Shown: positions 17,927 to 20,762 of the stretch, piece after piece
Layout of the letters: the number at the start of each line of letters is the position of its first letter
Numbering within the stretch: the first letter of the stretch is position 1
NCBI GenBank assembly: GCA_946411385.1
Contig: CAMKDV010000008.1
Coordinates: 31,492-95,491, forward strand
DNA length: 64,000 nt
Reading direction: 5' to 3'
DNA from: an uncultured Bacteroidales bacterium
Lineage (GTDB): Bacteria > Bacteroidota > Bacteroidia > Bacteroidales > Paludibacteraceae
Program-made: the position numbers and the translations under genes
Notes under the pieces: generated by a model
Seen by the model: the letters and a program-made list of their open reading frames with translations, nothing else
Told to the model about the DNA's origin: nothing
Database searches by the model: none

Positions 17927-19303
17927 ATGGATAAACAATCGCAAGCTTTTGTTGACGCCTTTATGGCGGAACTGATCCGTAAGAACCCGGGCGAGAAAGA
18001 GTTTCACCAAGCCGTCCGTGAAGTGGTGGAGAGTGTAGCGCCTATGGTCATGGCGTACCCGTACCTGCGCGAGCAGAAGATCCTCGAACGCATCGTCGAA
18101 CCCGAACGCGTCATTATGTTCCGCGTGCCGTGGATGGACGACGAGGGCGAAGTGCAGATCAACCGCGGCTTCCGTGTCCAGATGAACAGCGCCATCGGTC
18201 CCTACAAAGGCGGTATACGTTTTCATGAGTCTGTCAACCTCAGCATCATGAAGTTCCTCGCCTTTGAGCAGACCTTCAAGAATGCCCTTACTACGCTGCC
18301 TATGGGTGGTGCGAAGGGCGGCTCTGATTTCTCCCCAAGGGGCAAGTCGGATGCCGAAGTGATGCGTTTCTGCCAGTCGTTCATGACCGAACTCCAGCGC
18401 CACATCGGTGCTGATACTGATGTACCTGCCGGCGATATAGGCGTAGGCGGACGGGAGATAGGTTTCCTCTTTGGTCAGTACAAACGCCTGCGCGATGAGT
18501 TCACTGGCACGCTCACGGGCAAAGGACAGCTCTGGGGTGGCTCTCTTATGCGCCCTGAAGCTACCGGCTACGGAGCATGTTACTTTGCCGAAGCAATGCT
18601 CGCCACACGCGGTGAGTCTTTCTCCGGCAAACGCGTTTGTATCTCCGGCGCAGGCAACGTAGCGCAATATGCCGCACAGAAAGCGATGCGTCTGGGTGCC
18701 AAAGTACTCACCCTAAGCGATTCCGATGGCTTCATCTACGATCCCGAAGGACTGACTGAAGAGAAAATGAACTATGTCTTCCAGCTCAAGAACATCCGTC
18801 GCGGACGCATCAAGGAATATGCACAACAATTCCCCGAGGCACAATATTTCCCCGGCGAGCGTCCTTGGCGTATCCCTTGCGACATCGCTATGCCTTGCGC
18901 CACGCAAAACGAAATTGAGAAAGCCGACGCCGAGAACCTCATCCATAACGGTTGTTTCTGCGTCACCGAAGGTGCCAATATGCCTTCTACTCCCGAAGCT
19001 ATCGAAATCTTCCAGAACGCCCGCATCCTCTATAGTCCGGGCAAAGCCAGCAATGCCGGTGGCGTGGCTACCTCCGGTTTGGAAATGACGCAAAACTCCA
19101 TGCGCCTCCGCTGGACTGCCGAAGAGGTTGATCAGCGTCTCCGCACCATCATGGCGGATATCCACGCCGCATGCCTCAAGTACGGCACAGAGCCCGACAA
19201 TCTCAATCCCGACGGCAAACCCTACATCAATTACGTCCGTGGCGCCAACATCGCCGCCTTCATGCACGTCGCCAACGCCATGGTCGAACAAGGTCTGGTA
19301 TAA
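17927..19303 (+). CDS. gdhA: NAD(P)-dependent glutamate dehydrogenase
   Basis: Track ORF 17726-19303 trimmed to ATG 17927 (MDKQSQAFVDAFMAELIRKNPGEKEFHQA). Motifs GPYKGGIRFH and KNALTTLPMGGAKGGSDF. The upstream extension lies in promoter DNA. Confidence 0.9.
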   Translation: MDKQSQAFVDAFMAELIRKNPGEKEFHQAVREVVESVAPMVMAYPYLREQKILERIVEPERVIMFRVPWMDDEGEVQINRGFRVQMNSAIGPYKGGIRFHESVNLSIMKFLAFEQTFKNALTTLPMGGAKGGSDFSPRGKSDAEVMRFCQSFMTELQRHIGADTDVPAGDIGVGGREIGFLFGQYKRLRDEFTGTLTGKGQLWGGSLMRPEATGYGACYFAEAMLATRGESFSGKRVCISGAGNVAQYAAQKAMRLGAKVLTLSDSDGFIYDPEGLTEEKMNYVFQLKNIRRGRIKEYAQQFPEAQYFPGERPWRIPCDIAMPCATQNEIEKADAENLIHNGCFCVTEGANMPSTPEAIEIFQNARILYSPGKASNAGGVATSGLEMTQNSMRLRWTAEEVDQRLRTIMADIHAACLKYGTEPDNLNPDGKPYINYVRGANIAAFMHVANAMVEQGLV

Positions 19304-19314
19304 GTTACTAGTGC

Positions 19315-19421
19315 ATCCGCCATGCATGGCGGATCTACAAAATAATGTATCCGCCAATCTTGGCGGATCTACAGAATAACATATCTACCCCTGAAGAATG
19401 CATCCGCCAATCTTGGCGGAT
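19315..19421 (+). repeat. Three REP-like 20-nt hairpins 5' of the RAYT gene
   Basis: ATCCGCCATGCATGGCGGAT (19315-19334). ATCCGCCAATCTTGGCGGAT (19349-19368 and 19402-19421). All have a G[CT] 5' flank and a C plus A-rich 3' tail. Confidence 0.85.
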
Positions 19422-20624
19422 CAAAAAAAAGTGCCAACCGATTGGTATACATATTGGAAAGAACGCGGAGGCCTATTGAGTAACGCTCATCGTCCATGCA
19501 ACACCTGGAAGGATTACAAATCCCCCGGGGTATACCTTATTACAATTGTCACGCACGCCCGCAAGCGCGCGTTCGGCGAACTGAACAATAGTCTCTCCGC
19601 ACCCGCTGTTGTATTGACCAATCTTGGTCAATATATTGAGAAAGCCTGGCTACAGACCTTTGAGAAACAATCCGCCCGTGGGCGTCATATCCACTCGCTT
19701 GGCTATCAAGTCATGCCGGACCATTTCCATGGTATCCTACAAGTAGAGCGCCCTATGGATGTACTCATCGGCACTATCATTCGCGATTTCAAAGCCGTTT
19801 GCACGAAAGAGTACCGCATCCTGTATCCGCCAATTTTGGCGGATGATATCGATAGAGCGTATCTCGCCCGCTCTTCCCGCAAGCAGCGCGAGGATTATTA
19901 CGCCGCTCATGGTATAGAACCGCTCTTTGATGACAACTACGATGATTCCATCTGTTACCGCAAAGGGCAGTTAGAAAATATCATCAACTACGTACAGGAC
20001 AATCCGCGTCGTGCCATTATGCGTGCGCTCTATCCGGATCTCTTCCAACGCCGCCAACATATCACCATCGACGGACAGGATTTTGCCGCTTACGGAAATC
20101 TCTTCTTGTTAAAGCGCCCGTGGAAAGAACAAGTCTTCTGTCACCGATGGCTAATGCGAGATGGTCAGCGCGACTACAACACTCGCTATGAAACCACCGA
20201 CGCTTTTCATCAAGAACGCGCTACATGGATCCAAGCCGCTAAAGATGGCGCTGTTCTGGTCACGCCGGGCATCTCTAAAGGCGAGCAACAACTGGTCAAG
20301 GATTGTATCGAACAAGCCCTCCCGCTTATCCATCTGCAGAAAGAGCCCATCCGCGAGGGCTGGAATCCGGAAAAGCGGCGTCATCAACTCTGCGAGATGG
20401 GACAGCTTCTCATCCTGTCGCCGTGGCAACTGACCGAAATGGACAACGTCAACGGCATTCCCGCAGATACCGACTACAGCCAATTCCATAACATGAACAC
20501 CCTTGCCGCCCAAATATGCAAGAACAGTCTCTGCCCTACAATTAGTAGTATCCGCCATGCAATTAGTAATATCCGCCATGCAATGCATGAGTATCCGCCA
20601 ATCTTGGCGGATCAAAAGGAATAA
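19398..20624 (+). CDS. REP-associated tyrosine (HUH/Y1) transposase-like protein with a roughly 190-aa C-terminal extension
   Basis: 408 aa. YKSPGVYLITIVTHARKRAF, HUH motif MPDHFHGIL, catalytic-Tyr helix ENIINYVQDNPRRA. The annotated ATG (19398) and the last 10 codons lie inside REP copies. An in-frame GTG at 19431 is an alternative start. Confidence 0.75.
   Translation: MHPPILADQKKVPTDWYTYWKERGGLLSNAHRPCNTWKDYKSPGVYLITIVTHARKRAFGELNNSLSAPAVVLTNLGQYIEKAWLQTFEKQSARGRHIHSLGYQVMPDHFHGILQVERPMDVLIGTIIRDFKAVCTKEYRILYPPILADDIDRAYLARSSRKQREDYYAAHGIEPLFDDNYDDSICYRKGQLENIINYVQDNPRRAIMRALYPDLFQRRQHITIDGQDFAAYGNLFLLKRPWKEQVFCHRWLMRDGQRDYNTRYETTDAFHQERATWIQAAKDGAVLVTPGISKGEQQLVKDCIEQALPLIHLQKEPIREGWNPEKRRHQLCEMGQLLILSPWQLTEMDNVNGIPADTDYSQFHNMNTLAAQICKNSLCPTISSIRHAISNIRHAMHEYPPILADQKE
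19613..19632 (+). repeat. REP-like perfect hairpin inside the RAYT CDS (ATTGACCAATCTTGGTCAAT)
   Basis: Shares the invariant core CCAATCTTGG and the GT 5' flank with the flanking REPs. Three substitutions per arm are all mutually complementary. Confidence 0.7.
19825..19844 (+). repeat. REP copy inside the RAYT CDS (ATCCGCCAATTTTGGCGGAT), in frame as YPPILAD
   Basis: 9-bp perfect stem with arms identical to the flanking REPs. Lies between the HUH motif and the catalytic Tyr. Confidence 0.85.
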
Positions 20625-20647
20625 TGCATCCACCATGCATGGTGGAT
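20550..20647 (+). repeat. REP cluster 3' of or overlapping the RAYT stop: two half-sites plus two full hairpins
   Basis: ATCCGCCATGCA at 20550-20561 and 20571-20582. ATCCGCCAATCTTGGCGGAT at 20593-20612. ATCCACCATGCATGGTGGAT at 20628-20647 (compensated G>A / C>T). Confidence 0.85.
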
Positions 20648-20762
20648 CAAAACAACACCCTGCTTGAGGGTGAAAACAAATAGCAAACAATTAAATTATA
20701 CAATAATGAAACAAAGCATATTTACAGCAATAAGCATTTGCATAATAAAACTACAAAATAAT

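Follow-up and report, generated by a model that had tools for sequence, protein, structure and literature searches.

What is the relation between a nuclease gene and a family of short hairpins that both surround it and lie within it? This question is raised by a locus in a 64,000-nucleotide (nt) stretch of the genome of an uncultured Bacteroidales bacterium of the Paludibacteraceae; the whole stretch is referred to below as the window. Between gdhA and a gene for a small lipobox protein, the forward strand carries an open reading frame (ORF) that resembles the REP-associated tyrosine transposases (RAYTs), with hairpins of one type before, inside and behind it. RAYTs, together with the repetitive extragenic palindromes (REPs) that belong to them, are the textbook example of a domesticated transposase that maintains a population of non-autonomous hairpins. 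We consider it probable, on balance, that the locus is REPtron-like, i.e. that it consists of a chromosomal, apparently domesticated HUH-Y1 single-stranded DNA (ssDNA) nuclease/ligase of the RAYT lineage together with its cognate hairpins in direct tandem arrays. In addition, the hairpin inside the gene looks like the oldest part of the system, kept by selection on pairing as far as sequence comparison can tell.

The hairpins form a well-defined set. The pattern ATCCRCCA-N4-TGGYGGAT has six matches in the 64 kb, all within 19315-20647 (0.00 in 100 dinucleotide-preserving shuffles), and each complete copy, folded as ssDNA, forms a stem of 8 bp and a loop of 4 nt (-7.4 to -9.5 kcal/mol). Three copies lie upstream of the gene, spaced 34 and 53 nt apart. 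The hairpins and related palindromes are the following:

19315..19334, + strand: upstream hairpin 1, ATCCGCCATGCATGGCGGAT, 8-bp stem and 4-nt loop, 12 nt past the gdhA stop codon, -8.5 kcal/mol as ssDNA.
19349..19368, + strand: upstream hairpin 2, ATCCGCCAATCTTGGCGGAT, 34 nt after hairpin 1, a direct tandem unit of hairpin plus A-rich tail.
19402..19421, + strand: third upstream hairpin, at a distance of about 10 nt from the GTG start codon and followed by an A-rich leader.
19613..19632, + strand: second intragenic palindrome, ATTGACCAATCTTGGTCAAT, perfect, coding for LTNLGQ.
19825..19844, + strand: intragenic in-frame hairpin, ATCCGCCAATTTTGGCGGAT, encoding YPPILAD, between the HUH and Tyr motifs.
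20550..20582, + strand: two truncated units, ATCCGCCATGCA, at 20550 and 20571 (21 nt apart), each with the 5' flank, the 5' arm and the loop.
20593..20612, + strand: 3' hairpin, ATCCGCCAATCTTGGCGGAT, which overlaps with the ORF at its end.
20628..20647, + strand: variant hairpin downstream of the gene, ATCCACCATGCATGGTGGAT, in which a G>A change is compensated by C>T.

The first-pass annotation, made from the letters alone, had listed the hairpins at 19315, 19349, 19402, 20593 and 20628 (the last with its compensated G>A/C>T change) and the half sites at 20550 and 20571. All of these are real and their coordinates exact, but the inventory lacked the sixth copy at 19825-19844 and the palindrome at 19613-19632; with the former it missed the key feature of the locus, an apparently ancient, covarying hairpin within the coding sequence.

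The pairing of this intragenic copy was examined in 65 distinct relatives (41-100% identity), using the 24 nt around the YPPILAD codons, a register taken from the protein alignment and not from the structure, and a model of 9 bp with a 4-nt loop. Of all cells 86.7% were paired, versus 68.8 +/- 1.2% after shuffling, and the covariation score was 0.460 versus 0.169 +/- 0.016, a value that none of 500 shuffles reached and that fell to 0.04-0.10 when the partners were slid by 1-3 columns. Double-sided changes were seen at all nine pairs, and the hairpin is kept in relatives down to 41% identity. In a distant clade it reads AATCG-N-CCGATATCGG-N'-CGATT, where an Arg codon supplies N as its synonymous third base and a codon for Val, Ala, Gly or Asp supplies N' as its second. 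All four Watson-Crick combinations occur at this pair (mismatched in 13 of the 65), which suggests that base pairing dictates the amino acid. In the predicted structure the residues encoded by the hairpin fall in a low-confidence surface loop (residues 135-137). Relatives of 41-47% identity keep the internal hairpin and have no flanking copies within +/-5 kb. Thus the intragenic copy looks ancestral and the flanking arrays appear to have been added later, in the Paludibacteraceae clade.

The second intragenic palindrome has the same loop and the same outer and inner pairs as the main hairpin, and its three central pairs are swapped with full compensation. In 21 related loci the form TTGACC-N6-GGTCAA occupies this codon position, and the 1.6 Mb of fetched DNA contain no other instance of it; in some relatives it is broken by synonymous codons. 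The truncated units at 20550 and 20571 show no folding beyond chance and look like products of recent turnover. Two further candidates were rejected. Half sites ATCCGCCA away from the locus, of which there are 9 (2.5 would be expected for the whole window), were considered as decayed hairpins and turned out to be ordinary coding sequence. The hairpins were also considered as intrinsic terminators; their coding-strand tails are A-rich, and on neither strand is the stem followed by a T-tract.

The covariation data do not separate DNA from RNA as the selected form. The hairpins could act as cis-regulatory or stabilising stem-loops of the transcript, in translation control, as a 3' protector or as an internal pause or RNase site, with the enzyme acting on a different substrate. 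One hairpin about 10 nt before the start codon with an A-rich leader, another at the stop codon, the conservation of these offsets, the location of all copies on the coding strand and the retention of only the intragenic copy in distant relatives would all suit such a role, and REPs elsewhere are thought to work as RNA elements (PMC3733652). On the other hand, the stems lack a following T-tract, Rfam holds no matching family (the speF hit at E=0.2 being noise), G-U pairs show no enrichment (25 of the 103 non-Watson-Crick cells), and the hairpin is also found in unrelated stretches between genes and, in each of the three frames, inside housekeeping genes. Moreover, the encoded enzyme is of a class that recognises exactly such DNA hairpins. 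We give the RNA explanation little chance.

The enzyme itself is predicted to consist of two domains:

19398-20624, + strand: longest form of the ORF, 408 amino acids (aa), ATG at 19398.
19431..20624, + strand: 397-aa coding sequence that begins at the probable GTG start, as placed by homologue N-termini and locus L132.
19431..20048, + strand: predicted HUH-Y1 (RAYT-like) nuclease domain, HFH at 19722-19730, predicted catalytic Tyr codon at 19989-19991.
20049..20528, + strand: predicted DprA-like C-terminal domain, 160 aa, GISKGEQ at 20268-20288.

The ORF at 19398-20624 exists as first described and carries all three motifs quoted for it. The N-termini of homologues, which read M-TTDWYTYWKERGG, and the related locus L132 align at GTG 19431, so the start is probably there and the hairpin at 19402 lies about 10 nt upstream of the coding sequence, not inside it. 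At the other end the conserved protein stops near 20528, and the final ~30 codons (20529-20621), which derive from hairpin sequence and are not conserved, are read through up to the stop codon.

The N-terminal half is, according to the structural model, a HUH-Y1 fold that lies nearest to the RAYT profiles. The HUH motif is represented by HFH (residues 109-111) and the catalytic-type Tyr by Y198 of NYVQDNPRRA (NYVQDNP at 19986-20006). In an alignment of 24 sequences P107, D108, H109 and G112 do not vary, and conservation of F110 and H111 is at least 90%; in one of 91 sequences the first HUH His is invariant and the second at least 90% conserved, and the Tyr is invariant in both. The NCBIfam model REP_Tyr_transpos (NF047646) matches residues 85-206, from HUH to Tyr, at 2.5e-9, and 89 of the 91 relatives match it at E<=1e-3 (best 5e-12), versus one of the 91 for the IS200 model NF033573. 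The AlphaFold model built on the family alignment (pLDDT 83, pTM 0.80) was compared by Foldseek, and its N-terminal half matched the TnpA proteins of ISDra2, IS608 and IS200 and the E. coli RAYT-REP complex at E values between 3e-5 and 1e-4 (2xma 2.9e-5; 4er8 1.4e-4; 2vjv and 2f4f 1e-4). A sequence search of the PDB found no match for the whole protein or for the profile of its C-terminal domain, and only fold comparison identified the domains. Searches of PADLOC, PHROGs and Rfam gave no match either, which leaves a reading as defence system, phage function or known RNA unsupported. The family is large (1,551 clusters of 90% identity at E<=1e-3), and all named clusters are 'hypothetical protein' from metagenome-assembled genomes (MAGs) of Paludibacteraceae or Bacteroidales.

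With 375-397 aa the protein is twice the size of a RAYT as a result of the added C-terminal domain. These 160 aa, modelled alone (pLDDT 94, pTM 0.89), have as their top 13 Foldseek matches in the PDB exclusively DprA (from three species) or the DprA-like ShosA (probability 1.0, TM 0.52-0.56), and the first match outside this group appears only at E>0.3. On this model the domain has the Rossmann-like fold of DprA, although no Pfam (including DprA, PF02481), NCBIfam or PDB profile matches it. A profile search with the domain returned 968 representative clusters (50% identity) of proteins of 300-500 aa, in which it is always C-terminal; in 5 of 10 distant members sampled the N-terminal region touches Pfam Y1_Tnp, and one of these exceeds the cut-off. 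Thus the combination of Y1 and DprA-like domains is a trait of the family rather than a fusion peculiar to this locus. A search of the literature turned up no DprA-Y1 fusion. The domain might bind ssDNA or load RecA. Hairpins have also been observed in the C-terminal part of some relatives: P0092 has an extra in-frame QPSLAD hairpin at residue 335, within the DprA-like domain, and in the C-terminal tails of P0024 and P0055 up to four tandem hairpins are translated (IRQSWRI, SAKFGG three times).

The flanking hairpins follow the gene. The internal copy is present in all relatives of at least 57% identity with sequenced flanks. Usually another precedes the start codon by about 30 nt (approximately -421 nt from the internal one), and all of them have a further one at or just past the stop codon (+704 to +768 nt). 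The stem is ATCCGCC/GGCGGAT in relatives of ~70-89% identity, ATCAGCC/GGCTGAT in L007, L145, L160 and L213 and GTCAGCC/GGCTGAC in L148 and L151, and across these lineages the internal and flanking copies change in step, which links the hairpins to the gene. Within a locus the loops are often identical; every copy of L130-L140, for example, has AAGATT. Additional copies are arranged in direct tandem with a period of 34-40 nt. L135, for instance, has four such units, and L132 has four ahead of gdhA, three between it and the gene and three behind the gene. At gene loci all copies are on the coding strand, and of 42 external copies, read relative to the gene strand, 31 have G at -2, 32 a pyrimidine at -1 and 32 A at +3. 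This flank signature, together with the tandem units of L132 and L135, confirms the earlier claim that the copies share one polarity and form direct arrays, and shows that it holds outside the window as well.

The loops AATCTT and AAGATT are reverse complements of each other. L129 and L130-L140 differ from the window and L132 in loop orientation; within L129, too, the stems are identical and the loop is oriented one way in some copies and the other way in others, as though loops could flip. The occurrence of both loops implies that polarity is defined by the flanks and not by the loops. A further observation concerns assembly: the metagenome contigs of relatives (L129, L134-L136, L139, L140) are often only 1.4-2.3 kb long and end in or beside flanking hairpin arrays, so that the arrays seem to break short-read assemblies.

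The gene is chromosomal, syntenic within lineages and present once per locus. In the window it lies next to gdhA (Pfam ELFV_dehydrog, 6.5e-90), as first described; the neighbour on the other side, taken for a lipoprotein gene, encodes a small protein that has a lipobox and no Pfam match, and is followed by a gene for a PPDK_N-domain protein. A comparison of synteny in related genomes showed that L132 shares the gdhA position (83.7% nucleotide identity over 17960-20615), and most close relatives are located between aroA, or nearby genes, and a dsbD-like gene. The more distant family members are found in polysaccharide loci. No second copy of the gene is present within the 64 kb or at any relative's locus, no tnpB adjoins it, and neither the viral contigs of IMG/VR nor the plasmids of PLSDB hold relatives. 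This is the pattern of a domesticated RAYT that rarely relocates, not of an active insertion sequence (IS).

An autonomous element of the IS200/IS605 type, in which the unit hairpin-coding sequence-hairpin (~19400-20650) would be mobile by single-strand 'peel and paste' with the hairpins as left and right subterminal ends, has to be weighed at this point. Direct hairpins on the same strand do lie at both ends of the gene, as they do in IS608. In addition, the gene occupies at least two genomic contexts (gdhA and aroA-dsbD), the nucleotide homology between the window and the dsbD-context relatives runs from the start codon to the conserved C-terminus, and many metagenome contigs break exactly at the gene ends. 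Nevertheless, the dsbD-adjacent position has been kept across species whose DsbD proteins are only 56-59% identical, and the single copy per locus, the missing tnpB and the empty plasmid and viral searches speak against a mobile element. Moreover, the Tyr motif is Y-x-x-x-N-P (class 2, RAYT type) and not the Y-x-x-x-Q of IS200 (PMC6006769), the single relative matched by the IS200 model stands among 91, and the hairpin also stands alone far from any gene copy. An active IS is therefore quite improbable.

Copies away from the gene were collected by a scan of 185,579 species genomes with the pattern ATCCGCCA-N4-TGGCGGAT, which yielded at least 120 blocks; the copy numbers per genome are lower bounds. 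At least 55 blocks, with at least 64 hairpins, come from at least 32 rumen and gut Bacteroidales MAGs (at least 5 in one MAG), and the remaining blocks among the matches listed are singletons in unrelated phyla and two unrelated repeat families. Among the same matches the gene is present in only 2 blocks, and 43 of the 64 hairpins lie outside ORFs of at least 120 aa; in L045 and L128 hairpins flank single housekeeping genes. The orphan copies show the flank signature of the gene loci more often than the matches in other phyla do. Copies inside genes are in frame and use all three frames (SAxxGG, IRQxWRI, PPxxAD), and several occupy the same codon position in orthologues of different MAGs, as is the case for cysteinyl-tRNA synthetase (CysRS; L014, L021), IspD (L011, L072) and Lpd (L043, L106, L115).

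The MAG RGIG3560 holds the gene (P0068) with internal and 3' copies of the ATCAGCC type, a third ATCAGCC copy that lies in frame (DQPDLAD) in the gene for arginyl-tRNA synthetase (ArgRS), 7.6 kb away (18758-18777 of L213, JAFSXJ010000115.1), and orphans of the ATCCGCC type on two other contigs (9 and 21). With two stem types it may hold two hairpin types or two enzymes. The MAG of P0050 (JAFTCD01) was not among the matches listed in the hairpin scan. As to the unrelated repeat families, Treponema sp. Cf509_bin23 (L052, L059, L112) and Halomonas caseinilytica (L070, L109) have their own multi-copy extended palindromes, which share the ATCCGCCA..TGGCGGAT core (e.g. ccccacATCCGCCA...TGGCGGATgtgggg) and are probably separate REP-like families.

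How such copies sit in host genes can be seen best in Lpd, for which 120 orthologue clusters of at least 80% identity were compared (P0121-P0240, e.g. L043 3491-4900). The orthologues are 445-492 aa long, with variable cassettes at two or three hot spots (columns 129-169, 285-329). At the first of these, to which the counts refer, IRQxWRI is present in 28 of the 120 clusters, a YQPSAIS-type sequence in 26 and a different palindrome (TLPCGEGQGGV) in 14. The lpd site is, from these alignments, a hot spot. Measured against solved structures, the CysRS copy is located at a 4-aa gap, and the copies in Lpd and IspD add no length. The other palindrome belongs to a second family, CCCTCCC...GGGAGGG, that shares the lpd hot spot and was also seen in L212 (~1340-1400), L085 (437-480), L117 (4846-4893), L122 (6495-6507) and, downstream of the gene, in L142 and L143. 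It often abuts ATCCGCC hairpins, which suggests mosaic arrays of two repeat families, similar to the bacterial interspersed mosaic elements (BIMEs).

REPtrons are RAYT/TnpAREP genes flanked by their own REPs (Nunvar 2010 PMC2817692; Ton-Hoang 2012 PMC3333891; structure 4er8). The present locus resembles them in the HUH-Y1 fold with HUH and Y-x-x-x-N-P motifs, in having the RAYT model as best profile match, in being a chromosomal gene with one hairpin family on both sides (three up and two down in the window) and elsewhere in related genomes, and in a hairpin sequence that tracks the gene lineage. It differs in several respects. A RAYT is a single-domain protein of ~150-240 aa, whereas the present one has 375-397 aa and includes a DprA-like domain; REPs have a GT[AG]G foot and an imperfect stem, whereas short perfect palindromes with flanks G-Y / N-A-A are found here; REPs occur in inverted BIME/REPIN doublets and typically in more than 100 copies, whereas direct tandem arrays, and copy numbers that look low, are seen here. 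Finally, the intragenic copy is conserved throughout the present family.

The Bacteroidota setting, for which the first-pass annotation had called the system worth characterising, is not new as such. Quentin et al. (2018, PMC6006769) described TnpAY1 subclass 2.4 (Bertels group 4) of Cyanobacteria and Bacteroidetes, with REPs in frame within tnpAREP between HuH and Y, and atypical structures in Bacteroidetes were described for subclass 2.6 (PMC6006769). The locus shares with subclass 2.4 the in-frame hairpin between HUH and Tyr (here 19825-19844), the occurrence in Bacteroidetes and REPs that also flank the gene. Compared by published signatures, the motifs of that subclass are NH[IFV]H, WQ and YIxNNP, as opposed to DHFH, F-D and YVQDNP here, and the latter set fits no published TnpAY1 signature. 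Proteins of subclass 2.4 have a median of 194 aa (here 397) and no large C-terminal domain, their REPs are long and GT[AG]G-footed or 'double foot', and their insertions vary in length and sequence, whereas the site is fixed and covaries across the family here. Large C-terminal domains have been described only for TnpAY1 subclasses without REPs (PMC6006769).

The TnpA proteins of IS200/IS605 elements (IS608, ISDra2) provide the best structural matches, likewise have same-strand subterminal hairpins at both ends, and lead one to expect a single-strand mechanism; they differ from the present system, in which the Tyr motif is of class 2, the gene is single-copy per locus and syntenic without tnpB, and the same hairpin is found at both ends and alone elsewhere. 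The likeness to DprA and ShosA comprises the fold of the C-terminal 160 aa and a GxxxGE/D-type motif (PGISKGEQ) after a beta-strand; here a sequence-profile match and the SAM and winged-helix extensions are lacking, and the domain is fused to a Y1 nuclease. Intragenic REPs and Rickettsia palindromic elements are in-frame repeats in housekeeping genes that are tolerated in surface loops (Di Nocera 2013, PMC3733652). The present copies are likewise short, palindromic and in frame in housekeeping genes; they differ in that the units encode only ~7 aa, occupy orthologous positions in several species and add no length in Lpd and IspD. Thus, intragenic REPs as such are already known, and it is the combination of features in this family that has not been reported before.

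Several observations weigh against a REPtron-like system. The earlier assignment as a RAYT-type HUH transposase stands as regards the fold, the invariant HUH and Tyr residues and the 89 of 91 matches to the RAYT model, but it had overlooked the DprA-like domain and the scores lie below every curated threshold: Pfam Y1_Tnp (PF01797) gives a sub-threshold E of 0.052 (14.1 bits versus a cut-off of 23), and NF047646 gives 37.2 bits, far under its curated 80-bit cut-off. Perfect palindromes are not cut by E. coli TnpAREP, which depends on GTAG and on a mismatch in the stem (PMC3333891), whereas the present hairpins are perfect palindromes without a GTAG foot. The hairpin family does extend beyond the locus, in that copies exist in related genomes; nevertheless, the remaining ~62 kb of the window holds no credible further copy, even with 3 mismatches allowed, and the density of about one extra cluster per 100-160 kb of fetched flanks would correspond to tens per genome at most, not hundreds, which does not look REP-like. 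The gene and orphan copies were found together in one genome in a single MAG bin only. The presence of only the internal hairpin in the relatives of 41-47% identity means that its conserved role need not be REP proliferation. Finally, the hairpin allele of lpd and a 92%-identical 'empty' allele differ by the swap of an equal-length patch of ~39 nt between flanks that are ~95% identical, which simple insertion or cut-and-paste does not obviously explain; the 'empty' allele itself consists of tandem ATCAGCC-like heptamers, i.e. 7-mers resembling the hairpin arm.

A bolder explanation can also be put forward, in which the intragenic hairpin is a self-encoded master template and the Y1 nuclease with its DprA-like domain (of RecA-loader type) writes the hairpin elsewhere in a templated, conversion-like manner and not by cut-and-paste. 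This would account for the shared lineage stems, for the equal-length copies in Lpd and IspD and for an intragenic copy that is older than the arrays. We regard it as a long shot; if true, enzyme and template would reside in one gene and form a 'hairpin writer'.

The locus could also be read in terms of a fully domesticated host enzyme that processes ssDNA in recombination, repair or at forks via the DprA-like domain, while the hairpins are fixed functional sites and selection or gene conversion maintains their copies elsewhere. The gene is syntenic and appears to be inherited vertically, it has a large conserved C-terminal domain of the kind that the literature reports for subclasses without REPs (PMC6006769), the in-gene copies occupy orthologous positions in several species with perfect stems, and the Lpd allele involves no net change in length. 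Fixed hairpins are hard to reconcile with array lengths and loop types that vary among close relatives (the window, L132, L135), with truncated 21-nt units at 20550/20571 that look like recent turnover, and with a lpd-site hairpin whose presence or absence differs among orthologues of at least 80% identity. This explanation is unlikely, if somewhat less so than the mobile element, the RNA role and the template.

For the REPtron-like system that we favour, a course of events can be proposed by analogy with the chemistry of IS200/IS605 TnpA and E. coli TnpAREP (PMC3333891, PMC6006769). The cognate substrate would be the perfect hairpin of 8 bp with a 4-nt loop and polar flanks (G-Y 5', N-A-A 3'). 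The enzyme would bind it in single-stranded DNA, for instance at the replication fork, cleave beside it by means of the Tyr of YVQDNP and a HUH-bound metal, and subsequently rejoin the ends. Such cutting and rejoining could duplicate the 34-40-nt units of hairpin plus tail, and thus give rise to direct tandem arrays by the gene, and would occasionally seed copies elsewhere, in intergenic DNA or in frame in permissive loops of genes. The intragenic hairpin would most likely be a cis site on the enzyme's own gene; it could hypothetically be a protected master copy that ties the hairpin sequence to the specificity of the enzyme, an autoregulatory site, or both. Considering that the hairpin is a perfect one of 20 nt and that the protein model is confident, binding and cleavage are directly testable.

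The fusion to a DprA-like domain may point to a connection of hairpin cleavage with processing of the recombination type. In a family of roughly a thousand clusters at 50% identity, compensatory evolution appears to have preserved the hairpin in the enzyme's own gene, and with enough force to impose changes of amino acid; very short hairpins are tolerated in frame in the essential genes for CysRS, ArgRS, IspD and Lpd. The system resides in abundant rumen Bacteroidales, where such repeats also seem to break the assembly of metagenomes.

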